Positions 1 through 11,971 of a stretch of 18,944 nucleotides of DNA are shown here, piece by piece (positions within the stretch are counted from its first letter, which is position 1; every line of letters starts with the position of its first letter). This stretch comes from a bacterium (GTDB lineage: Bacteria; Hinthialibacterota; Hinthialibacteria; Hinthialibacterales; Hinthialibacteraceae), in assembly GCA_963663405.2 (NCBI GenBank), contig CAXXSM010000081.1, positions 1 to 18,944 on the forward strand, given 5' to 3'. Made by a program: the position numbers and the translations under genes. The notes under the pieces were generated by a model that did no database searches, had not been told where the DNA came from, and worked only from the letters and a program-made list of their open reading frames with translations.

Positions 1-22
1 CAGTATCCCGTCCTGTTTTTTA

Positions 23-872
23 GTTTGCCCAGCGAAGCGGGCAACTCCGGCTTGTTGAAAGAAACAGGCGTCGCCCCGGCCAAGGGGAAGACAATCCAAA
101 TCGCAAGGGCGTTGCTGGCAACGGCAGGGTCTGAAGGAAGCGATAGGAAGTGAACGGCACATAGCGCAAGCGAACCTGATTCGGCGGCGCGGGTGGGTAA
201 GCGTGCTAAATAGCGCAACGCCCAAAACTTGGTCAGACCCGTGACGTGTTTGAGGATGGGGCAGTTCACAGGAACCCGTCAGTAACTGGGGAAGCCTCAT
301 ATCGTTCCGCCCGGCACAGCCGGAGCGGATAGTGAAACTCAAGAGGAGACTCGAGACGGATCGAAGCGGTGTGAGGTGGCAGATGAATCCGTAGTAGTGT
401 TGAAATCCCGGCCTGAGAAAGCGGGTAACCGTCTGGAGGAGAAAACCGGGATGACCTGCGGCCAAGTTCGCAGGGGCCGACGGAGAAGCCAAAAGCGCCG
501 CTGGTTGCGAAGGGAGGAAGTTGATTCGAAGGTTCTCGGAAATCGAAAGAAGCGTGGAACCGAACATAAGCCATTCGTCGGGATGGGGCACTTGGAAAGC
601 GGTACGCTGTGAAAGGCGGTCTGCCTTCCTGGGCTGTTCGCCGGAGTAGTTTGGAAACGAGGCCGCACATTGCCCGAGAGGGATAGAAGGCGACATCGTC
701 CAAGCGAAGAGCCGGAGGGGAAGTGATGATTTCGAAAGAAGAGGATGCAGGAGCGAGACTTCTGTTTCAGTCAAATGAAGGAGAATCAACAGGAGCCGTA
801 TACGAGGCCCGTACGTACGGTTCTGTGAGAGGGATAAGGTAGGATTGATTTTCCTACCTTACCCTACTCGAT
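23..872 (+). mobile_element. Group II intron, ORF-less (RT/IEP deleted), copy 1
   Basis: Domain V GAGCCGTATACGAGGCCCGTACGTACGGTTC (793-823, AGC triad). Domain VI hairpin GAGAGGG-ATAAGGTAGGA...TCCTACCTTA-CCCT[A]CTC with bulged A866, ending ...GAT (AY) at 872. DIII-like motif at 379-447. 5' boundary GTTTG is set by where identity with copy 2 begins. No RT ORF. Confidence 0.92.
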
Positions 873-930
873 ATGGGTTATGTGCGCCTGATACTATAAA
901 CGCTAATGGAATGATCAACTCCTTACGGTC

Positions 931-3345
931 CAGAACTCACTATTTCGGCCGTTTTGGTCCTGAAACAATCGCAATTTCAAATTCCGTTTTTTCCCCAAGA
1001 CGAAAGTGAATTTGCCGATTCGAACCATCGGGCATAAGCGGGTGGCTCTCATTAATGTTAGCCAGATACTGCTCCATAATCCGCCTTACTTTCGGTGGAT
1101 AATTCGGTTTCGGAAGGAGAATGACTTCCACCTGATCTCCCTGTTGTTTGATGACTCCATCCGATTGAGTTAAGGAACGAAAGAGCACGTGATCATCCCT
1201 GAAATTATCATACTCTTTTTTGAACGGCTCCAGCATTTTATAAAAGATATTTCGCGCCAACAATTTCAAAACGTCCATCAAATATTTATTGCGTGTATCC
1301 AAGCGGACGCAATCCTGCTCGATTAAAAACTCCAGCCGGGACATTTCCTTTTCTGTTGTTTTCATTTCCTCGTCAATCTCATCCAGCCGGAGAGACAAGG
1401 TTTGAATCTTTTCGGCACGTTTTGCATTTTTCCCAGGATGTTGACGCTCCTGGACCAAGAGTTTGCCCAATTTCTCTTGCGTTTGGCTTCGTTCCATTTC
1501 CAGCGCTTTATACGCGCCGCTCTTCATTTGTTTATCTTCCAGGTGATCTTGTAACCGCTTGTAAGGAATCACCGCATAACTGGTGATTTCGTTAATCCCA
1601 AAGTGTTTGTCTAAATACTTAAAATCATTTTCCTGGATCCAGCGCCGGAAGATCAATGTAATTATCTCTGGCGCCGGCCGAGTCAAGTCATCGGTCAATA
1701 CGCCCACTTCGATCGTCCGTCCTTTGGGATTGGCCGCACGCACGCGCAGTCTCCGCATTAACGAATCCTTTTCCCAGCGCTCATCAAGGTAGGCGAAGGT
1801 ATAGAGTTGCAGATCCGTAGCGCAATTGCGGTTCCGTTCCAGCGTGAAGGTTCCCGGCGCCAGTTCCGCTGGCCAAGGCGCCAACTTGAAGTTCTTTTCC
1901 CACGTGATCACATGCGTGGAAGTATCTTCGATGAATTTCTGAAAGACTTCAAGACTGTATATCCCACGGTCAACGATGAAGGTGATCACCTTCTTTTTAT
2001 CCATCTGTAAAAGCGCTCGAAAGTGGTTGGTCACCTGAAAAAACCGGTCCCGCATGTCTTCGTAATTATCGGTCGATTCGAGATACACCGGATGCCCCGC
2101 CGCCGTGTGAATAAAATCCATATAGAGCGCTTTATCCGCCGAACGGATGCTTGGACACCAGCCTTTCAAGACGTTCTAGATTCCTGTATAGCGTTTCGTA
2201 TGGGGATCGTAATAAAAGTCATCGTTCGCCGCCGCATTGACCTCTGCGGCGTTTAATCGAAGTACTTGCTCCGCTATCGCCGCCGTCGCCATTTGGCCCA
2301 GATGCGTTCGTTGATCATGCAAGGAGCGCATGCACTTTCCCAAAAGCCGTTTCAAATCCTCAAAATCCAGCAACTTGGTTTGTTCGATATTGACCGCTCC
2401 TAACAAGATGATCGCCACCCATTGTTTGAGCAGCCAACTCTCCTTCTCCGGGAAAGCGTCGAGACGGAGAAACAACGCGCTGAACAGCAACACGCCCAGG
2501 TGATGACACAGAGTCACTTCCTCCGGAAAGGCTTCCTTTAATTCGGGAGACTCCTTGCGATTGTTACAAGGCATTGGTGTGGATGACTCCTTAGATTGTT
2601 CTCGAATTTCTTCGTTTTCAGAGCCAATTTCGCTTGTCTTCTCCTCTTCTTCGATCTCGGGTTCCTGCTCACAATCCCAGGGAGTTTCCTCATTTTCCTT
2701 TTGATCTTTTATGCTTTCCTTCAATTCTCTCAGCAAGAGACGGAGCGTTTCCCCGGATAGGGTGCGGCCGAACACCTGCTCAATCTCGTCTCGCATGCGT
2801 TTGCTATATTCATATTTTGTTTCCTCGTAAATCGCTGGAAATCGCATGCGGATATACGATTCGATTTCCGGAGTGAGTTTTCTTCGCGCTTGGCGGCCAA
2901 ACAACACTTTCCGTAGTTGTTCACTATCCCCAGAGCGAAGAGCGGCGCCCCACCGCTTCATGGTTTTCCGGTCCACTTGAAAGACTTCTTGCAAGATGGT
3001 CGCATTGAGGTTGGCGTTGTAGAGTCGAGCGACGAGTAATTTGTATTCGATATGCTCTCGATCGTCCGGTACAATTTCTAATAGATGCGCGCCGTAATAG
3101 ACATGCAACTGGTCTTCCTCTTCATCGCAGAAAATCGTAAACACCGGATTTCTCTTGTCCGTGCCTAAAATCTTTTGTAAATAATCGGAATGTGATAAAG
3201 GAGAAATGATGAGTCCCTCTCTGTTTTTTTATTTATTGAATTACTGGATTGTAGAGGGGAGTAGGCTGACAGCAAATTCCCTCGGAAAGTGGGAATCTTA
3301 TTTGCGATTATTTTGGGTTAAAAATGGCTGTTTTAGTGAGGTCTG
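931..3345 (-). mobile_element. IS-like element with large DDE-type transposase (family not assigned)
   Basis: Terminal inverted repeats CAGAACTCACTA (931-942) and TAGTGAGGTCTG (3334-3345), 11/12 match, enclose the transposase frame. No TSD visible. Confidence 0.65.
940..3210 (-). pseudogene. Large (~756 codon) putative DDE transposase with a single in-frame TAG at 2176-2178
   Basis: ORFs 2176..3144 and 940..2169 are in the same frame (HTKRYTGI*NVLKGWCP). DDE-like motifs FYYDPH, FIVDRG, RRWIQENDFKY; N-terminal HTH-like segment. Frame stays open upstream to ATC at 3208-3210 behind GAGAGGG. Confidence 0.8.
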
Positions 3346-3428
3346 ACCCTCTTTGAGGCCAGGCCGCGAAACGATTGGGCTTTGATCAGTTCACAAAATC
3401 AATCGCATGGGGTAATTTTGCCTCTTCG

Positions 3429-3530
3429 CTATTTCATGTGGGTAGAGGGTAGAACCTTGGGAAGATTAAATTCCAATTTTCCTCTACCAAACAGATGGTT
3501 ATGATTAAATTGTAGACGTTTCGATATCTG
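3429..3530 (-). repeat. Diverged second copy of the ISL3 transposase 3' end (direct repeat of ~3909-4011)
   Basis: ctatttcatgtgggtagagggtagaaccttgggaagattaaattccaa vs ctatttcgtgtggggcgaggggaagaaccttgggaagattgaattccaa; translates RYRNVYNLIITICLV vs GYRNVNNLITTIYLI. Confidence 0.9.
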
Positions 3531-3627
3531 CTAAGCGACAAGTATTTTTCAGTAGGATTGCCTTCCATTGATCCGTTTGCGGGTTTGGATTTTATCGGAG
3601 AAAAAAACTTACTTTCATGTGCCGCAT

Positions 3628-3784
3628 GCTTGTGGAGTCTGTGGTCAGGCGCCTCAATAATCTTTCTCATTCCCCCTATTCTTTCGCAGGCGGCTGTCCA
3701 AATCTTGTGGGCAAACCGTCAGGAACTTTTTCTTCTCACCCAGAGTATCGGCGGTTTGTCCATAAGATGGCAGAATCCACAAGC
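3628..3784. ncRNA. Candidate structured three-stem element inside ISL3
   Basis: Outer stem 3628-3641/3771-3784 (13/14); inner stems 3642-3653/3689-3700 (10/12) and 3703-3718/3752-3767 (14 WC + 2 G-U on + strand). Confidence 0.5.
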
Positions 3785-3908
3785 CCTCACTCGTTCGGAT
3801 TACTGACCATGAATCGCAAGACCGGAGAGACTCGGTTGGTTTCATCCGGTGTCTTTTGCTTGGTTTGGCGGCTTGCCTGCAGGAACGGGAACGATTCAAA
3901 CCGTATTA

Positions 3909-5162
3909 CTATTTCGTGTGGGGCGAGGGAAGAACCTTGGGAAGATTGAATTCCAACTTGCTTCCAATCAAATAGATGGTAGTGATCAAATTGTTGACGT
4001 TGCGATAGCCTCTCGCACGAGCCTTGGCGGCTTGGATCAGACTATTCATCCCCTCCAACAGACCATTGTTGATTCGCGAAGTAAACCAACGCACCACACC
4101 AGCCCAGTGCTCTTTGATCGTTTTCGCGGCCTTGATCATCGGCTCAATCCGGCTGTGAGTCGCCCAGTAATACCACTTTTTAAGAAACGATTCCCCCTCC
4201 TCCGGATCGTCGAACGAAAACACGTCTTGGAACACGGATCGCAGATGGTAGGCTTTCACCGTCTTCAATTTGCTCCCTCGTACATCTTGAAAGATTTCGC
4301 TCCGTTTCTTTTCTTGCTTCTCCGTGAGATTCCATTCATTCTTCAGCCAAATATACTTCGTCCCCTTCAACAAGTCGGGATAGATCGCTTGGTCTTGTTT
4401 GCGCACTTCGTCTACGGCTTGATTGATAATCCTCATCAGGTGGTATTCATCAAATGTCATTTCGGCGGCCGGGAAATTGGCTTCAATCCCGGATTGAAAC
4501 GCCTGGGACATATCCAAACAAAATTCCTCCACCTGCTCCGCCTTTCCGTTATGCGTCTCTAAATCCTCTTTGAACGCCTTCACCGTTTGCGCGTCCTTTC
4601 CATCGGTGGCAAACATCACGCTGCGCTCGTCCAAATCCATGAATACGCTGACATAATTGTGCCCTTTGGCCTTGGAGGTCTCATCCACCCCCACCGCCTT
4701 CACTCCCGAAAAATCCTCCCTCTCTCGCGCGTCCATCACATAATGAGTCAGCACTCGCCAAATCAGCGTGTCATATTCTCCGACCACTCGGCTGATCGCA
4801 TTGGCCGTCATCCCATTCTCCGCCAGTGCCATGACCAACGCTTCAAATAACAACGTAAATCCCGCCCCCGGACGGGCCCAGGGAAGATTCACTGTCTTGA
4901 CTTTATGATTGGGACATTTCACACGAGGTTGCCGGGCGTGTAAATACGTCTCATACTGAAAGAAATTCAGATGCCTCCAAGTGCGTCGTTTCGTATCATG
5001 CACTCCGCACAGGTTCCCGCATTCGGGACAGGGAAACAGACTCCCCTCGGGAAAGTCCAGCGTGAGGTGCAAGGTTTTTTCTTCCTCAGGAAACTCGGCC
5101 TGGACGACCTGCCATGGCTCACTCAAACCTAACGCTAACCGGAATAATTCTTGGTTCTTCAT
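3909..5162 (-). CDS. ISL3-family transposase, 417 aa
   Basis: zf-ISL3 (CPECG...RVKCPNH), VGVDETS, CLDMS, FDEYH and NNGLLEGMNSLIQAAKARARGYRN motifs. Confidence 0.95.
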   Translation of the reverse strand: MKNQELFRLALGLSEPWQVVQAEFPEEEKTLHLTLDFPEGSLFPCPECGNLCGVHDTKRRTWRHLNFFQYETYLHARQPRVKCPNHKVKTVNLPWARPGAGFTLLFEALVMALAENGMTANAISRVVGEYDTLIWRVLTHYVMDAREREDFSGVKAVGVDETSKAKGHNYVSVFMDLDERSVMFATDGKDAQTVKAFKEDLETHNGKAEQVEEFCLDMSQAFQSGIEANFPAAEMTFDEYHLMRIINQAVDEVRKQDQAIYPDLLKGTKYIWLKNEWNLTEKQEKKRSEIFQDVRGSKLKTVKAYHLRSVFQDVFSFDDPEEGESFLKKWYYWATHSRIEPMIKAAKTIKEHWAGVVRWFTSRINNGLLEGMNSLIQAAKARARGYRNVNNLITTIYLIGSKLEFNLPKVLPSPHTK

Positions 5163-6097
5163 TCTCTTCCTTCTCTCTCTTGGGATTGGGATCTTTGTCT
5201 TTAGCCTGGGCGGAGGATCGGACCTTGCGGGGACGCGAACTGAGTGCTGACCAAGAAGACTGTCGAAGGACGGTCTAGCACCGCCCTTCTTGTTAGTTTA
5301 TCTCGTCGGGATTGGTACGTAAGCGATATATCTCCGGGAGGATGGAGGAAAGCCTTCCCCAAATCTACCCACTCGATTCCGCGAAGAGCCGTAATTTTCG
5401 CCGGAGACAAAAATGCGGGAATACTTCCTCAATGTGAAAAGACAGGAAGTAACAGGTCATATAATTCACAGTGGTCTGTTCAGAGAAAAGGGACGCTTAT
5501 TTGCCAGAAATTGGAAATGAACCAAAGAGCAGGTCGTTCAATGGTTTGGTTTTCTAATGTAGGACTGGGCGAACCCATGGAAGAAGGGGATTGGCTTTTT
5601 GCTGAAACGCAAAGTGCGTACGCTGCTGTGTGTATTGTCGATGGCGGATATGCCTGGGAAGATCAAACCAGACGTGCAAAGGGCAAATGGCTGGTTTGCA
5701 AGAATGAATATTCTCCTGTCATCCTCGAAGTGGACCAGAAATCAAACTATCAGTCATTTAAGAAGTTTCGTGCAAAAGTTATCGGGAATGCGTTATCGTT
5801 TAAAAACAATATCCTGCACTATACCGGTATTTATGGTGATTCGTTTACTTTCTTTGCTGACTATTCAAAAGCCCCTCAAATTAATGGTGCACCGGTAAAC
5901 TATGCTCCATCAAAAGCGTATGACAGTCCTTTTCTAAATGCAGACTGGGATAGTGGTGTGGTTTATATCCAAAAAGGAAAAAGGTCCCTGATTCTGGATT
6001 TCAGTTCAAATGGAAAGAAAAGTATACATTAACAAAGAACGAAAGATATGGGGGAGCATCAGATCGAGTGGTGAGGCCATTCCCCTGCCGTTTGGCA

Positions 6098-6610
6098 TTA
6101 CATATCCTTTGCGTCGGATGGACTCGACGAATCGAGCAATTCGAGGAATTCAGATTTGTTGATTCCTCCGGCTCGCCAATCCAAGGCATTTCCTTGTGGA
6201 GCGGTAACGATTGTGACTGGCGTGAATTCGACCTTGTAACGAGCCAACACTGAAGCGTTGTCCAGGTTGTCTACGTCAATTGCCACGGGTATGAATTGCG
6301 CATTGACCAATGCAACCACTTGCTCATCAGCCCACACTTGGCGTTTCATTATGCGGCAGGGAACACACCATGTAGCGGTGAAGAAAAGGATCATCGGTTT
6401 GCCAGAGTCGGCTGCTTGCTGCTGGGCTAAAGTGTAGTTGTCAGCCCAATCGATGTCATTGGAGGGGACGTAGTAGCAATACCAAGCGTACACAAGTGAT
6501 ACAACAAGGAATGTCAGCCAAAAGCATTGCCAGAAATGAAATCGTTTCTTTCCGACCGGTGGTGATTCGGAGTTTCCTGACGGATGTAATAGGGATGATG
6601 ATTCGTTCAT
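6098..6610 (-). CDS. Membrane-anchored thioredoxin-family protein
   Basis: N-terminal TM segment; GKPMILFFTATWCVPCRIMK (WCxxC); cis-Pro loop FTPVT. Confidence 0.9.
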   Translation of the reverse strand: MNESSSLLHPSGNSESPPVGKKRFHFWQCFWLTFLVVSLVYAWYCYYVPSNDIDWADNYTLAQQQAADSGKPMILFFTATWCVPCRIMKRQVWADEQVVALVNAQFIPVAIDVDNLDNASVLARYKVEFTPVTIVTAPQGNALDWRAGGINKSEFLELLDSSSPSDAKDM

Positions 6611-6748
6611 TGTTATGTGTCCACATCTGTTCGCGTGTGCGACGAACTAATCGTAATAAATTGTTGGTAATTATAATGTGTTTTCTTCTCAGTCAAGAAT
6701 AAACTGAATCATATCCTTGAATAAACAGGCGAGGACCTCAGTTCGGCG

Positions 6749-6784
6749 AGCTGAGGGTCGCGGGTTCGACCCCCGTCTCCCGCT
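6749..6784 (+). pseudogene. tRNA-Gly-like 3' half (possible att remnant)
   Basis: AGCTGAGGGTCGCGGGTTCGACCCCCGTCTCCCGCT gives anticodon-stem 3' strand, T arm (GTTCGA) and acceptor 3' strand typical of tRNA-Gly. No matching 5' half (GCGGGAG) and no CCA. Confidence 0.7.
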
Positions 6785-7065
6785 TCTGATTTTATTGGAC
6801 TTACGAATGTTTATCTATTAACAAAATCTGCCTCAGGAACCCTTTTGATTGAAATCACGCCATTTTTCTGATATATGATAGAAATACTCTATTTTATAAT
6901 CCCCTTATAACTATACAGTTAAAAAACTTGTTTTTTTATAATGGGGGGAGCATCAGCTCGATGATCTGGAAATGTAAAACCGCTCACAAATTAAATCTTG
7001 TCATATGATAATTTTTTCAATATGAGTGTCTGTTGATTTTCGCATTTATTTATTCAAAACAGAAA

Positions 7066-7451
7066 CCGAAGGATGTAGACTTTCGCGTAATGGTGAAAGA
7101 GAATACCGGGAAAGAAGATCAGGGAGGGGGACCCATCTGGCGATGCAAAGATAAAGACAATTATTATATTGTTCGCTGGAATCCGCTTGAATGAAAGCAA
7201 TTATCGAGTTTATTATGTCAAAGAGGGAAAACAGACTCAAATTGCGACCGCTCAAGCTTATATCGATTCCTCAAAATGGCATGAAATTCGAATTCTGATG
7301 AAAGGGAATAAGATCACTGTTTTTTTTGGATGGAGTCCAATCGATGATTGTGGAAGATAATACGTTTGCCGATACCGGGAAAGTTGGGTTATGGACCAAA
7401 GCCGATGCGGCTACGGCATTTGATCAACTAACCATTGAGGAAATAAAGTAA
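7066..7451 (+). pseudogene. DUF1080 / 3-keto-disaccharide hydrolase-like gene remnant, three frameshifts
   Basis: Stitched frames read KDVDFRVMVKENTG/KEDQGGGPIWRCKDKDNYYIVRWNPLE/SNYRVYYVKEGK...WHEIRILMKGNKITVF/LDG...DNTFADTGKVGLWTKADAATAFDQLTIEEIK*. Confidence 0.75.
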
Positions 7452-7468
7452 GACGATTGATTCTGAAG

Positions 7469-7504
7469 AAACCGATTTCAACTGTCTGGTGAAATCGGTT
7501 TTTT
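7469..7504 (+). terminator. Intrinsic terminator; insertion target of intron copy 2
   Basis: AAACCGATTTCA-actgtctgg-TGAAATCGGTTT followed by TTT, 18 nt after the stop codon at 7449-7451. Confidence 0.85.
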
Positions 7505-8354
7505 GTTTGCCCAGCGAAGCGGGCAACTCCGGCTTGTTGAAAGAAACAGGCGTCGCCCCGGCCAAGGGGAAGACAATCCAAATCGCAAGGGCGTTGCTGG
7601 CAACGGCAGGGTCTGAAGGAAGCGATAGGAAGTGAACGGCACATAGCGCAAGCGAACCTGATTCGGCGGCGCGGGTGGGTAAGCGTGCTAAATAGCGCAA
7701 CGCCCAAAACTTGGTCAGACCCGTGACGTGTTTGAGGATGGGGCAGTTCACAGGAACCCGTCAGTAACTGGGGAAGCCTCATATCGTTTCGCCCGGCACA
7801 GCCGGAGCGGATAGTGAAACTCAAGAGGAGACTCGAGACGGATCGAAGCGGTGTGAGGTGGCAGATGAATCCGTAGTAGTGTTGAAATCCCGGCCTGAGA
7901 AAGCGGGTAACCGTCTGGAGGAGAAAATCGGGATGACCTGCGGCCAAGTTCGCAGGGGCCGACGGAGAAGCCAAAAGCGCCGCTGGTTGCGAAGGGAGGA
8001 AGTTGATTCGAAGGTTCTCGGAAATCGAAAGAAGCGTGGAACCGAACATAAGCCATTCGTCGGGATGGGGCACTTGGAAAGCGGTACGCTGTGAAAGGCG
8101 GTCTGCCTTCCTGGGCTGTTCGCCGGAGTAGTTTGGAAACGAGGCCGCACATTGCCCGAGAGGGATAGAAGACGACATCGTCCAAGCGAAGAGCCGGAGG
8201 GGAAGTGATGATTTCGAAAGAAGAGGATGCAGGAGCGAGACTTCTGTTTCAGTCAAATGAAGGAGAATCAACAGGAGCCGTATACGAGGCCCGTACGTAC
8301 GGTTCTGTGAGAGGGATAAGGTAGGATTGATTTTCCTACCTTACCCTACTCGAT
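7505..8354 (+). mobile_element. Group II intron, ORF-less, copy 2
   Basis: Same length as copy 1 (offset 7482). Differences seen at 307/7789 (C/T), 446/7928 (C/T), 690/8172 (G/A). DV 8275-8305, branch A8348. Confidence 0.92.
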
Positions 8355-8641
8355 ACTACGGGATAAACTGCTAACGATAGGATTCAGGCCTGTTGCACTC
8401 TCGTCTATAGAGAGAGAGTACTTCCAACTTGTTCAACATTTGACAGGCATCAATTTCGTTGCAATAAAAATGGGGATGCGGTTGTTCTTCATCTCCATCC
8501 AAGAAAAATGTTTTGGGAATCAATTCGGTTTCCCAACCATATTTCTCAATCAATTCCGATAAAAATGTTTCTTGAAAATCTTTCCGGGGAGGAGAATAGG
8601 ATATTTTTTTGAAAGGCTTTGGGGCATATCTGACAAAATCT

Positions 8642-8793: not shown

Positions 8794-10260
8794 ATGTCTG
8801 AAAAGAAGAATTTAACAAACGCAGTCGGATCGCCAGTCGCCGACAATCAGAACGTGATGACCGCTGGATCGCGTGGCCCAATGTTACTGCAGGACGTGTG
8901 GTTTTTGGAAAAACTCGCTCATTTTGACCGGGAGGTAATTCCAGAACGCCGCATGCACGCCAAGGGTTCCGGCGCGTTTGGCGCCTTTACCGTCACCCAC
9001 GACATCTCCAAGTACACAAAGGCCAAGATTTTTTCCGAGATCGGGAAAAAGACCGAAATGTTTGTTCGCTTTTCAACGGTGGCTGGTGAGCGCGGCGCGG
9101 CGGATGCCGAACGTGACATCCGTGGTTTTGCTATTAAGTTTTACACCGAAGAAGGAAACTGGGACTTGGTCGGTAATAACACACCCGTTTTTTTCCTTCG
9201 CGATCCACTTAAGTTTCCCGATCTTAACCACGCGGTGAAACGCGATCCAAAAACTAACTTGCGCAGTGCCCGGAACAACTGGGATTTCTGGACCTCATTG
9301 CCCGAGGCTCTACACCAAGTCACTATAACCATGAGCGATCGGGGAATTCCATTATCCTATCGTCACATGAACGGTTATGGGAGTCACACATACAGTATGA
9401 TCAATGCTGCAGGTGAAAGGTTCTGGATTAAGTTTCATTTGAAGACACAGCAGGGAATTAAAACGTTAACGGATGCAGAGGCAGAAGCAATCATCGGAAA
9501 GTGTCGAGAGAGCCATCAGCGGGATCTATTCGATAGTATTGAAAAGGGAGATTTCCCTAAATGGAACATGAAGATTCAGATTGTTCCGGAGAAAGACGCC
9601 GCTAAATTCCCGTTCAATCCTTTTGATCTTACCAAAGTATGGCCGCATAAAGATTATCCACTCATCGACGTTGGCGTGATGGAATTGAATCGGAATCCAG
9701 AGAACTATTTTGCAGAGGTAGAGCAGTCCGCTTTTAATCCTGCAAACATTGTGCCCGGAATCGGTTTTTCTCCCGACAAGATGCTTCAGGGACGACTCTT
9801 TTCCTATGGCGACGCGCAGCGATACCGGCTGGGAGTCAACCATCATCTGATCCCAGTGAATCGCGCCCGCTGTCCGGTTCACGGGTATCATCGCGATGGC
9901 TTAATGCGAGTAGACGACAATTACGGTGGAACTCTCGGCTACGAACCCAATAGCTATGGCGAGTGGCAGGAACAACCAGACTGCAAAGAACCGCCGCTAA
10001 GCCTGGAAGGTGCTGCAGATCATTGGAACCATCGAGAAGATGATGACGATTATTTCTCACAACCCGGTGATTTGTTCAGAATAATGAGCGCTGATCAACA
10101 AAAACGGCTCTTCGAAAACACCGCCAGGGCGATGGGAGATGCACCGAAAGAGATAAAGATTCGACACATAGGTAATTGCCTGAAAGCTGATCCGGCTTAC
10201 GGGGAAGGCGTCGCTGCCGCTTTAGGAATATCGTTAAGCGAGGTAAGTTCAGATAAGTAG
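8794..10260 (+). CDS. katA: Monofunctional small-subunit heme catalase, 488 aa
   Basis: Active-site [27 protein letters not shown], heme-ligand RLFSYGDAQ; AAGGAG RBS. Confidence 0.97.
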
Positions 10261-10302
10261 AGTGAAGCGTATATCAACAAAACGCAGTAAATTGTTATTA
10301 TC

Positions 10303-10347
10303 GACAGCCGGATGTTATGAAACGAATTCGTTCTTCATCCGGCTGTC
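10303..10347. terminator. Inverted repeat downstream of katA
   Basis: GACAGCCGGATG / CATCCGGCTGTC, perfect 12 bp with 21-nt loop; no clear U-tract. Confidence 0.5.
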
Positions 10348-10393
10348 AACTATTGATAAGGTGAATGGATGAAAGTGGATAACGATATCGCTA

Positions 10394-11298
10394 TTAAGGT
10401 TCATGTTTTCCAACCGCGCCAAAACGCTGCTTCATGTTAAAGTTATCAACAAATTCAGCGAAAGCGTAGCTGGTAAAAATCGGTTCTTGATCGGAGATTA
10501 TATGCTTCGGAGAGCCATGGATTTCAATTGCTTGTTCCAAGGTTTCTATTGTCCAACCGGCATTGGGGCCTTCCAGGGGAGAGCAGCAAACCACCTTCCG
10601 GGAATAATGGTCAATTGCAACAAGAACGTATGTTGGCCACAATCCCCACCGAAACACAATCGTTCGATCGACACTCCACACGTGATTGGGATACCAAGCC
10701 GGGATGGACCGCTGGGAGGATTGACCACTATTTTTTCCAGCCGGATTGGGCGCCAGAGATGGTTCCCCTGGTGGATAAGGTCGTTGCAGGATGTTGCGAA
10801 CCGTCGAGGCCGCCAAGAAAATGTTAAGAAGGGATAACTGAAGAGAAATCCGAATCCGTCCCCAATGCGGATTGGCTTTGGCAATTTCCCAGACGAGTAG
10901 GGCCACTTCGATAGGAGTTTTGTTTGCTGGTTCGTTTTTGTTCCCACTTTGATTTCGATATTCTTCAGCCATCGATTAATCGTTGATCGAGCCACACCAA
11001 GTCATTTCGTCATCTCCCGAGTGGAAATTTGAAAATATTCCTTGTACCGAAGAATCCATAACCGTTCTCGAAGTGAATAGCGTGGTTTATGATTCTTATC
11101 TCTTCCTTGTTTTCGCAAAATTTCTAGTTCCGTTTCCAATTGAAAAATGCGATTACGAAGAAATTGGTTCTCGACTTCGGGATTGTTCTCCTCTTCAGCA
11201 AGATTTTTCATTTGCTTGAAACGAGTAACTCCCGCCCATTGAGCTGACAAGAGGAGAGCCTTCAAAATCAAAGGAATTGCCGCTTGAATTACGTCCAT
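10394..11298 (-). pseudogene. Integrase-core (rve) transposase, IS481/IS3-like; nonsense + frameshift + 3' truncation
   Basis: MDVIQAA...STREMTK*LGVARSTINRWLKN (HTH), frameshift near 10950, then NPHWGRIRI, PNHVWSVD, VAIDHYSRKV, PKHIISDQ. Ends at GAVGKH before the expected catalytic Glu. Confidence 0.85.
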
Positions 11299-11361: not shown

Positions 11362-11748
11362 CCGGTTATCGGTGGACCGATTCTTGGATAACAGGCACAC
11401 TGGGACCGATGTAAGAATCCCCCTCAATTTGTTTGGACCTAAGTAAAAAAGACAATTCCATCTTGAAGACTTGCCAATGTAACAGGATAAGTGCGCCTAT
11501 AGGCTGATAATTTCAACTCGACGGTTCCTGTTCATACCCACTATTTCACTTACACGTTCTTTTTTTTCTGGATTTTCTATGAAATTAAACTTACATTTAT
11601 CAAACAACATAGTTGATCTTTGTAATTTCAATTAAAATGAATATTTTTCAAGAAGAATCGCTCAATTTAGGTTATTGAATGCTTTAGTGGCTCTCATGGG
11701 TATTGAGAGAGCCACGAAAGAGTGGTTACTTGTAAGGAGGTGATTACC

Positions 11749-11971
11749 ATAGAAAAATCGAAATCGATAACTAGCGAAAGGCACGAATCAGTGCGTTTTA
11801 TAGGCAGATGCGTATGCGGGAATATCTTGGAACCGGCGTTTAATCCTAATTTGAATATTGTTTTTTTGGAATTGTTTTGAATGCTTTCCATTCTACGATC
11901 GGGCCACGAAAGAACAGCGGGAAGAATTGATCCAGTCGTTTGAGGATAATGGATTCTTAAAACGAGAGTAG
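11749..11971 (+). pseudogene. Cryptic ~73 aa zinc-ribbon-like protein (ATA start, +1 T frameshift)
   Basis: Perfect SD TAAGGAGGTGA (11733-11743). RCVCGNILEPAFNPNLNIVF/WNCFECFPFYD...FLKRE* after removing one T from 11861-11867. Confidence 0.55.

Follow-up and report, generated by a model that had tools for sequence, protein, structure and literature searches.

The window (the whole 18,944-nt stretch of DNA that was analysed) carries two copies of what is probably a non-autonomous IIC-type group II intron, spread in trans by the RT/maturase (IEP) of a related intron after a single internal deletion in domain IV (DIV) had removed almost the whole RT/maturase ORF while leaving the ribozyme and the ORF-start region in place. 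We put the probability of this reading at about four in five. The inference that an ORF-deleted intron was mobilised in trans is well supported, and at least two mobility events after the loss of the ORF would have given rise to the two copies in the window and a third elsewhere in the assembly.

In a MAFFT alignment of window positions 1-960 with 7400-8442, copies A and B (Table 1) differ at exactly three positions, all of them transitions (window 307/7789, C/T; 446/7928, C/T; 690/8172, G/A), which bears out to the base what a sequence-only reading of this DNA had seen by eye. The outermost intron ends given in that reading (23 and 8354) match the switch from variable to constant sequence in four copies (A, B, the third short copy C and a full-length copy, both described below), and it is this switch that fixes the intron boundaries. 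Upstream of A and B only a T-run is held in common, position 22 already being different, and downstream they share one base (A873/A8355) before the flanks diverge. The flanks are thus unrelated, as had been claimed, and identity that stops at the element ends excludes segmental duplication. Both copies match the Rfam families RF02001 (group-II-D1D4-3; 112-279 in A, 7594-7761 in B; 66.5 bits, cut-off 32) and RF00029 (DV/DVI; 791-862 in A, 8273-8344 in B; 43.6 bits, cut-off 40), so that the description of DV and DVI as intact agrees with a score above the gathering threshold in both copies and with a canonical fold. Likewise, the reported want of an RT ORF is reflected in the window ORF list, which has no plus-strand ORF of at least 80 aa inside either copy, and in a tblastn search with the family RT, which gave no match on the window contig.

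Copy A starts only 22 nt from the contig end, and its 5' flank is therefore almost unseen; these 22 nt have no other occurrence in the assembly. The 5' junction of copy B is bridged, with zero differences, by a contig from run X1 that covers 6390-7579 (run X1 being possibly the source sample, this contig is independent of the assembler only, and not of the data). No empty insertion site was seen in four runs.

Table 1. Features of the two ORF-less introns and their 5' exons (window coordinates)
Feature	Position	Strand	Equivalent in copy B	Description	Basis
5' exon of copy A	1..22	+		T-run end; IBS1 = UUUA (19-22); rest of target beyond contig end	
ORF-less group II intron copy A	23..872	+		850 nt; 5' GUUUG ... 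3' GAU	Alignment, Rfam RF02001 and RF00029, four-copy boundary
UCUGAAGGAAGC segment with AGGAA	130..141	+	7612-7623	Typical of IIC epsilon-prime region	Rfam alignment
EBS1 (UAAA)	207..210	+	7689-7692	Intron nt 185-188; terminal loop of DI hairpin	Covariation
5' remnant of RT ORF in DIV	670..759	+	8152-8241	TTG 670-672, in-frame TGA 724-726	
Segment 3' of deletion junction	760..778	+		Short-form nt 738-850 matches full-length 1986-2096	blastn, alignment
Domain V	793..823	+	8275-8305	31 nt; AGC triad, 2-nt bulge, 3-bp distal stem	RF00029, fold
Domain VI	827..869	+	8309-8351	Bulged A at 866 (A8348 in copy B), seventh base from 3' end	Fold
5' exon of copy B	7470..7504	+		11-bp hairpin then T6; IBS1 = UUUU (7501-7504); -17.4 kcal/mol, 6 T in last 8	
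ORF-less group II intron copy B	7505..8354	+		850 nt; three transitions compared with copy A	Alignment, Rfam

A genome-wide search for further short forms revealed the third of them, copy C (G000:C161:19590-20439), which has the same ORF deletion and flanks unrelated to those of A and B. The three are mutually 99.5-99.6% identical, and on alignment the deletion junction, the indels and a TGA at codon 19 of the ORF remnant are the same in all of them. The junction, at about window 759/760, leaves about 29 codons of the ORF on its 5' side and about six on its 3' side. At the ORF start, within the 5' remnant, lies an AUUGCC...GAUAGAAGGCG motif that is conserved in 18 relatives and is putatively the IEP-binding DIVa; it is retained in the short form, as are two covarying hairpins that precede it. 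At intron nt 392, A and B have T, but C and the full-length copy have G; private substitutions occur at 668 in A, at 285 and 424 in B, and at 636 in C. This pattern implies a branching order among copies that were already deleted, and the common deletion, the common premature stop and the substitution confined to A and B indicate that the deleted form itself multiplied, which upholds the earlier proposal that spread followed ORF loss. The presence of the three contigs concerned (C81, C161 and C77, the last with the full-length copy) in one cell rests on binning, the genome being a fragmented bin of 170 contigs (82% complete, 2.4% contamination). The bacterial family has other ORF-less derivatives, at G008:C244 and G003:C133; the deletion ends of the one at G008:C244 are about 12 and 5 nt away from those of copies A, B and C.

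The full-length relative (C77:9666-11761; 2,096 nt) has the same ends as the short copies and encodes an intact 452-aa RT/maturase with a YADD motif and no stop. Its IEP has RVT_1 and GIIM domains only, being without an endonuclease domain, and scores 416.8 bits against TIGR04416 (cut-off 300); in tblastn searches it was the sole group II RT/maturase found in the assembly. Its best matches among solved structures were the GsI-IIC RT (6ar1; 278.7 bits) and a group II intron RT/maturase (7uim; 275.7 bits), LtrA giving 162.5 bits. The longer, RT-encoding parent implied by the sequence-only reading is therefore found in part: there is a relative with the right ends, but it is only 88% identical to the short form over the ribozyme, and the identity is a mosaic (98-100% over nt 251-450, 66-84% over nt 451-731), so that the C77 intron is not the direct parent. 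An IEP would be expected to bind on the DIV side, to which nt 451-731 correspond, and the C77 IEP might therefore fail to recognise RNA of the short form. Some IEPs of Thermosynechococcus elongatus are described as acting on their own intron only (PMC2882425).

The short copies are predicted to keep a complete ribozyme. An RNAalifold consensus of DI-DIII from 26 aligned family sequences contains 125 pairs, and compensatory changes occur in 77 of these; of the 125, the short copy forms 121 and the full-length copy 122 (the range across the 26 rows being 107-125). In the DV fold, a 2-nt bulge separates a 9-bp basal helix, which includes the AGC, from a 3-bp distal helix. The bulged A of DVI, as the seventh base from the end, agrees with the group II criterion of a branch point 7-8 nt from the 3' splice site, and the 3' end of the intron (GAU) fits the criterion of an AY end. 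The 5' end is GUUUG, with U at position 3, compared with the usual GUGYG, but 29 of 30 distinct 5' ends in the family are the same (the other is GUGUG), from which it follows that GUUUG is a lineage trait of RT-encoding introns and not decay of the short copies.

We class the element as IIC-type, meaning that it belongs to class C or to a sister lineage, and stop short of calling it a strict member of class C. Like IIC introns, it has an EBS1-IBS1 pairing of 3-4 bp, no IBS2, an AGGAA, a short DV distal stem and, in the full-length relative, an IEP without an endonuclease domain. The AGGAA, described for the epsilon-prime region of IIC introns (PMC1702495), is at 135-139 in A and 7617-7621 in B, is unpaired in both the Rfam and the RNAalifold structures, and lies within UCUGAAGGAAGC, which is invariant in 26 family members, single changes aside. 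At 3 bp, the DV distal stem fits the IIC criterion of being 2 bp shorter than in IIA and IIB. However, DV begins GAGCC, giving the triad AGC; the CGC that replaces it in IIC introns (PMC1702495) is not present, and this is why the element is filed as IIC-type only. Further differences are that the RNA without ORF is about 740 nt, compared with the figure of about 400 nt quoted for IIC introns (DI is small, closing at about intron nt 266, and DII-DIV are longer), and that the GUUUG end is unlike that of the IIC introns B.h.I1 and GsI-IIC. According to PMC1702495, every IIC intron then known was a component of a retroelement; the window copies have no ORF.

All the short copies begin immediately after a hairpin and T-run, which is also the position, directly behind terminator-like stem-loops, at which the class C introns B.h.I1 and GsI-IIC are inserted (PMC1702495, PMC4424553); terminator-following insertion has been reported too for the neighbouring IEP types g6, U1 and U2 (PMC8919778). 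Neither the IIC-type affiliation nor this mode of targeting had been spotted in the sequence-only reading. The target of copy B is a terminator-like motif that follows a frameshifted remnant of a gene (7033-7451). Copy C lies in a divergent promoter region, where the hairpin that precedes it is weak (-7.3 kcal/mol) and there is no clear terminator. Across the family, 26 of 32 distinct 5' flanks have both a hairpin at least as stable as -10 kcal/mol and at least four T in the last eight bases; of 2000 random 45-mers taken from the genome, 51 show this combination. There is no IBS2-EBS2 pairing, the hairpin standing in place of IBS2. EBS1 and the last four exon bases (-4 to -1) covary, and all four pairs are formed in 23 of 26 aligned family members (and in nine of the 12 members with an IBS1 other than UUUU). 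All three short copies have UAAA as EBS1, a sequence absent from the 25 other aligned family members; it pairs at all four positions with the UUUA of A and C, and at three of four with the UUUU of B (a U-U mismatch at exon -1). In the full-length copy, EBS1 is GAAA and IBS1 is UUUC.

Among other explanations, the one that survives best, although we consider it improbable, is ectopic gene conversion, by which one ORF-less allele would have overwritten the others through homologous recombination after full-length introns of a single lineage had become inserted at all three sites, the short form never having been retromobile. The mosaic relationship of the short form to the C77 copy does imply that intron copies here have exchanged sequence; but conversion requires three prior insertions and three conversions, compared with two retrotranspositions, and the C77 copy was left unconverted. 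The exact fit of the short-form EBS1 to two of the three sites, set against the GAAA of the full-length copy, also speaks for movement of the short form itself, unless a full-length ancestor with UAAA has been lost. It is more improbable still that one real short copy was placed several times in assembly, or that contigs from different organisms were binned together: the closeness of copy A to a contig end and the fragmentation of the bin would suit such an artefact, but copies B and C are contig-internal with unique sequence on both sides, the copies have their private substitutions, and the run X1 contig crosses the 5' junction of copy B cleanly. That the copies are immobile or splicing-only relics, left by a burst of a lost full-length parent and then deleted three times in parallel, is hardly credible, for although ORF loss recurs in this intron family (as at G008:C244), the identical junction, indels and stop would require an implausible coincidence to the base. 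Mobilisation by a non-intron host RT is just as hard to credit: the only other RT detected, on C100, has as its best NCBIfam match a group II RT model (TIGR04416) at a score far under the cut-off (112 compared with 300 bits), and it has RVT_1 without a GIIM/maturase domain, shares 29% identity with the IEP across 205 residues and has a defence-like context, adjoining a TIR-NACHT gene.

How might an ORF-less intron spread in trans, as we propose? Read-through from upstream would transcribe a copy, and the RT/maturase of the C77 relative, or of a closer unassembled parent, would bind the ORF-less RNA and aid its splicing. The RNP would then insert by reverse splicing into single-stranded DNA, immediately downstream of a hairpin and T-run, the site being chosen by the 4-nt EBS1 (pairing with UUUA or UUUU) and by recognition of the hairpin, after which the borrowed RT, itself without an endonuclease domain, would copy the RNA into DNA. 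Priming would presumably be from a replication-fork primer, as is described for IIC introns.

MITEs and SINEs are non-autonomous and rely on machinery provided in trans, and the intron had earlier been compared to a MITE. The analogy holds at the level of function, in that the cis signals are kept, the enzyme gene is lost and the autonomous copy is outnumbered (3 to 1 in this assembly), but it goes no further, as the element descends from group II introns and shares their chemistry, in which reverse splicing by a ribozyme is combined with reverse transcription. The idea itself was already established in print (PMC2882425, PMC2504315, PMC4424553), and a trans-mobilised ORF-less intron is not new in kind, TeI3 and B.c.I7 being direct precedents. 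ORF-less introns nearly always occur alongside a related intron that encodes an IEP and may help them in trans (PMC4424553, PMC3245105).

The ORF-less TeI3 introns of T. elongatus are mobilised by TeI4 IEPs, and for these precedents there is experimental support (Mohr, Ghanem and Lambowitz 2010, PMC2882425). As described there, TeI3 resembles the present element in having one DIV ORF deletion with identical break-points in all copies and ORF remnants on both sides, in the multiplication of the ORF-less form after the deletion, in sites that fit the EBS, and in the presence of related IEP introns in the same genome. However, TeI3 and TeI4 are IIB (CL) introns with EBS1 and EBS2 and IEPs that have an endonuclease domain, whereas here the intron is IIC-type with a 4-nt EBS1 only and an IEP lacking that domain; hairpin-T-run motifs are the target here, unlike the situation with TeI3 and TeI4; and there are 17 copies of TeI3 compared with three of this element, which is known from sequence alone. 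For B.c.I7, on plasmid pE33L466 of Bacillus cereus E33L, activation in trans was inferred by the authors (Tourasse and Kolsto 2008, PMC2504315). There too, three nearly identical ORF-less copies are accompanied by one complete copy, and a few bases of each ORF end are retained; B.c.I7 differs in being plasmid-borne in a host of another phylum, and in having a complete copy that is near-identical, compared with 88% here.

These copies leave the understanding of group II intron biology unchanged, but they give the branch that targets terminators (IIC-type) a clean example, with three copies whose branching order can be dated and a one-base difference in EBS1 from the autonomous copy that matches the difference between their target sites. 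Such ORF-less copies are missed by intron surveys based on RTs. As the candidate helper is clearly diverged, the system offers a usable test of the tolerance of an IIC-type RT/maturase for a foreign ribozyme, a question that bears on the evolution of a shared splicing apparatus. More tentatively, and we think it rather less likely than otherwise, the ORF-less form may be a persistent, specialised non-autonomous lineage, the 'SINE' of IIC-type introns, with its own target specificity and with sequence exchange with the autonomous copy, such derivatives, their deletions trimmed back to the edges of the ORF, arising or persisting repeatedly in the bacterial family. If this were so, hairpin-targeting introns could sustain stable parasite-of-a-parasite lineages.

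Copies A and B of the ORF-less intron are identical but for three differences when nt 1-960 of the window are aligned with 7400-8442, all of them transitions (307/7789, 446/7928 and 690/8172), and outside the introns their 5' flanks have a T-run alone in common and their 3' flanks one A. The Rfam models for domains D1-D4 (RF02001, 66.5 bits) and for DV/DVI (RF00029, 43.6 bits) match both copies above their gathering scores, and the ORF listing holds no plus-strand ORF of at least 80 aa within either. The sequence-only reading had described two such copies, with three transitions, unrelated flanks, exact boundaries at 23 and 8354, intact DV and DVI and no RT ORF; on the evidence of the alignment, Rfam and the ORF listing that description was exact to the base, and the observation of the copies is confirmed. 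Long antisense ORFs span the introns (286 aa over copy B, 263 aa over copy A, and one of 237 aa across the full-length copy), probably as a by-product of a purine-rich sense strand; the 286-aa one, which has no Pfam match, was rejected as a gene.

The genome bin (170 contigs, completeness 82%, contamination 2.4%), of which the window is one entire contig (C81, 18,944 nt), was searched with the element. A count of the short copies, as the same reading had proposed, adds a third complete one, copy C, with three mismatches to copy A in a comparison of 857 nt. A longer relative on contig C77 gave a split match (88% identity at 9661-10395, 93% at 11651-11761). The element also matched a fragment on C18 (99% identical to intron nt 523-652), which carries copy C's private T at 636, has one end precisely at the ORF-start AUUGCC, and lies in sense orientation within a large gene, now broken into two ORFs (507 and 442 aa); either capture of a piece of cDNA or an aborted insertion may explain it. 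A solitary DV/DVI match on C147 (RF00029, 42.1 bits), which has neither a D1-D4 match nor similarity to the element studied, adjoins an ORF that by eye resembles a response-regulator receiver domain, and probably represents what is left of the 3' end of another group II intron.

Coordinates of intron copies, internal features, derivatives and neighbours (window positions unless a contig is named)
Feature	Location	Strand	EBS1	IBS1	Pairs	Remark
Copy A	23-872		UAAA	UUUA	4/4
Copy B	7505-8354		UAAA	UUUU	3/4	U-U at -1
Copy C	C161:19590-20439	minus	UAAA	UUUA	4/4	locus L028, C161:18090-21939
Full-length copy	C77:9666-11761		GAAA	UUUC	4/4
RF02001 matches	112-279; 7594-7761
RF00029 matches	791-862; 8273-8344
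ORF start retained in short form	670-672					TTG; first start codon listed for full-length ORF
5' ORF remnant	TGA at 724-726					~29 codons; TGA in frame
Deletion junction	~759/760
3' ORF remnant						last ~six codons + stop codon
Antisense ORF, copy A	1-789	minus
Antisense ORF, copy B	7411-8271	minus
Fragment on C18	C18:40575-40704	minus				130 nt; L005 1501-1630
DV/DVI remnant on C147	C147:12612-12685	minus				L010 1501-1574
Derivative in G008	G008:C244, L018 ~1191-1646	minus				456 nt; L018
Remnant in G003	G003:C133					160 nt; L039
RT on C100	within C100:32000-36500					L099
Transposase_29-like ORF	940-2169	minus				weak match, below cut-off
ISL3-family transposase gene	3909-5162	minus
56-nt direct repeat	3429-3484; 3909-3964					86% identical
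Overlapping ORFs, different frames	7033-7194; 7169-7360; 7326-7451	plus
Catalase gene	8794-10260					same strand as copy B
rve integrase-core ORF	10394-10972	minus

The short form corresponds to nt 1 to ~735 of the full-length intron joined to nt ~1983-2096, and its deletion junction and in-frame stop are common to all three short copies. At intron nt 392 copies A and B have T where copy C and the full-length copy have G, and there are private substitutions at 668 (A), at 285 and 424 (B) and at 636 (C). The shared junction and stop, with the order that the substitutions give to the copies, thus bear out the proposal that the deleted form itself multiplied, and did so at least twice.

How might an intron without a maturase have moved? 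The full-length intron on C77 (2,096 nt) carries in domain IV an ORF of 452 aa with an RVT_1 and a group II maturase (GIIM) domain (TIGR04416, 416.8 bits against a cut-off of 300) and no endonuclease domain. Among solved structures the closest to the ORF product are the GsI-IIC RT (278.7 bits) and the group II intron RT/maturase 7uim (275.7), with LtrA at 162.5. A tblastn search of the genome with this intron-encoded protein (IEP) had just two hits, the IEP and an RT on C100 that is 29% identical to it. The latter (326 aa, RVT_1 only) directly adjoins a TIR-NACHT gene, and its best NCBIfam matches, a group II RT model (112 bits) and Drt3a (72 bits), are both below cut-off; unlike an intron maturase, it looks defence-related, and with its neighbour it forms a candidate RT-based defence pair.

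The sequence-only reading had proposed a search for a longer, RT-encoding parent. The C77 intron does encode an IEP, but its identity to the short form is mosaic (98-100% at nt 251-450, 66-84% at nt 451-731), and full-length relatives in two other genera (genomes G001 and G010) are no nearer, so the C77 intron is not the parent. Either a nearer parent is unassembled or lost, or the copies have recombined; this divergence is the chief weakness in naming the C77 IEP as the helper. Matches to the element occur in 16 of 61 genomes (60 relatives and the genome studied), including 11 of 19 in the same family, most of the matches being fragments at contig ends. In G008, a derivative behind a clean terminator hairpin is without the ORF and without most of DI-DIII (intron nt 149-522) and keeps the 5' end, the motif at the ORF start, DV and DVI; the ends of its ORF deletion lie ~12 and 5 nt from those of the window copies. 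A remnant in G003 consists of the two intron ends only. By these derivatives, ORF loss is recurrent in the lineage.

The short form appears well preserved as a ribozyme. A consensus structure was derived from the 5'-terminal 650 nt of 26 family members (125 pairs, 77 with compensatory changes); the short form makes 121 of the pairs and the full-length copy 122 (range over the 26 rows 107-125). On folding, DV and DVI are canonical, and the seventh base counted from the 3' end is a bulged A. Also retained are two covarying hairpins 5' of the ORF start and a strongly conserved motif around it (AUUGCC...GAUAGAAGGCG), which, by analogy with IIA introns as treated in PMC2882425, is a candidate DIVa site for binding the IEP. 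Two Marinobacter members (L086 and L066) have a 52-56-nt insertion in a DIII loop with its own T-run and palindrome (alignment A3 columns 430-485), which the remaining 24 introns of the alignment lack.

The four sites of insertion in the genome are alike, with a hairpin, then a T-run, then GUUUG. Relatives of the IEP were collected from public genomes (57 loci, in Desulfobulbales, Desulfuromonadales, Nitrospirae, Halomonas/Marinobacter-type Gammaproteobacteria, Planctomycetota and others) and the 5' ends of their introns located. A target with a hairpin at least as strong as -10 kcal/mol and at least four T in the last eight bases was present in 26 of 32 distinct 5' flanks, against 51 of 2000 random 45-mers of the genome studied; the six exceptions comprise three with a strong hairpin and fewer T, two with a T-run and a weak hairpin (copy C among them), and one intron behind another intron. 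The hairpin 5' of copy B is missed by a simple terminator scan, which accepts loops of up to 8 nt, the loop here having 9. In a gammaproteobacterial MAG (L060, JAMCWB010000063.1, ~position 125), a family member lies directly behind the 3' end of another copy (...CUCGAU), whose DVI stands in for the terminator hairpin.

Insertion behind a terminator-like hairpin is the target habit of IIC introns (PMC1702495, PMC4424553 and PMC7306698), and the IIC traits of PMC1702495 include several present here: the AGGAA motif (135-139), a distal stem in DV of only 3 bp, pairing of EBS1 with IBS1 over a short stretch, and no IBS2. The trait CGC in DV is absent, the element having AGC, and IEP types g6, U1 and U2, which neighbour class C, are also found right behind terminators (PMC8919778). 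Taken with the relatives of the IEP, this makes the element IIC-type, of class C or a sister lineage.

Among the 26 aligned members, a DI hairpin presents intron nt 185-188 in its terminal loop, and these nucleotides covary with exon positions -4 to -1: pairing is complete in 23 rows, extends to three of the four positions in two rows and to two in one. The exon ends in something other than UUUU in 12 rows, nine of them fully paired, and the fully paired rows include nine different EBS1/IBS1 combinations. A partner-swap control (278/756 fully paired, computed with wrong EBS1 letters for copies B and C) is uninformative because AAAA/UUUU dominates. The one base by which EBS1 of the non-autonomous form departs from that of the autonomous form matches the difference between their sites, and the fit confirms the 5' intron boundary. 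In DI no convincing candidate was seen for EBS3, a position that would covary with the base opening the 3' exon (A in the three short copies and C in the full-length copy).

Parts of the window occur as short contigs (Logan) in four public runs from four studies, and no RNA run is among those listed as containing it. One from X1, which may be the source sample, spans 6390-7579 without a difference and so crosses the 5' junction of copy B; the record at its 3' junction reaches 29 nt into the intron, below the 31-nt rule. Within the intron there are joints at 462-788 (X2) and 477-760 (X1). Among the contigs of the four runs no record listed bridges a junction of copy A, and none shows an empty site, with no joint skipping either intron. 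In a contig from X7 the intron's 5' end follows an upstream sequence unlike those here, suggesting another insertion site in a related strain. Scans of metagenome contigs for the 23-nt deletion junction, and with a gapped pattern meant to catch relatives that lack the ORF and are about as long, each gave 0 loci, although exact matching of this kind says little on absence.

The contig is abundant in other mobile-element genes, and the 56-nt repeat lies at the end of the ISL3 gene. The overlapping ORFs at 7033-7451 read like pieces of one frameshifted gene, and beyond the end of this putative remnant come the hairpin and T-run behind which copy B sits, with the catalase gene 440 nt downstream of the intron. 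Copy C is flanked by divergent genes, one for an AraC-family regulator and one for a glycoside hydrolase of the apiosidase-like kind. The hydrolase gene, on the same strand as copy C, starts 72 nt downstream of it, and copy C may be within that gene's leader.

An IEP in the genome, a shared deletion and the fit of EBS1 to its sites support the proposal that the deleted form spread using an IEP from elsewhere, to which we would give a probability of about 0.8. Similar behaviour is described in two papers: in the TeI3/TeI4 system of T. elongatus there is one ORF deletion with identical break-points, together with ORF remnants and good EBS/IBS fits, and mobilization in trans was shown experimentally (PMC2882425), and in B. 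cereus E33L a complete copy of B.c.I7 is accompanied by three that lack the ORF and are near-identical (PMC2504315). Reviews describe ORF-less introns as rare in bacteria and nearly always accompanied by a related IEP-encoding intron (PMC4424553, PMC3245105), and in 2006 every IIC intron then known was, according to PMC1702495, a component of a retroelement; among the papers listed by literature searches, at the level of titles and the opening lines of abstracts, we found none on proliferating ORF-less IIC copies. The additions to known behaviour are small ones: an IIC-type context, a covarying EBS1, a diverged candidate helper, and ORF-less derivatives that recur.
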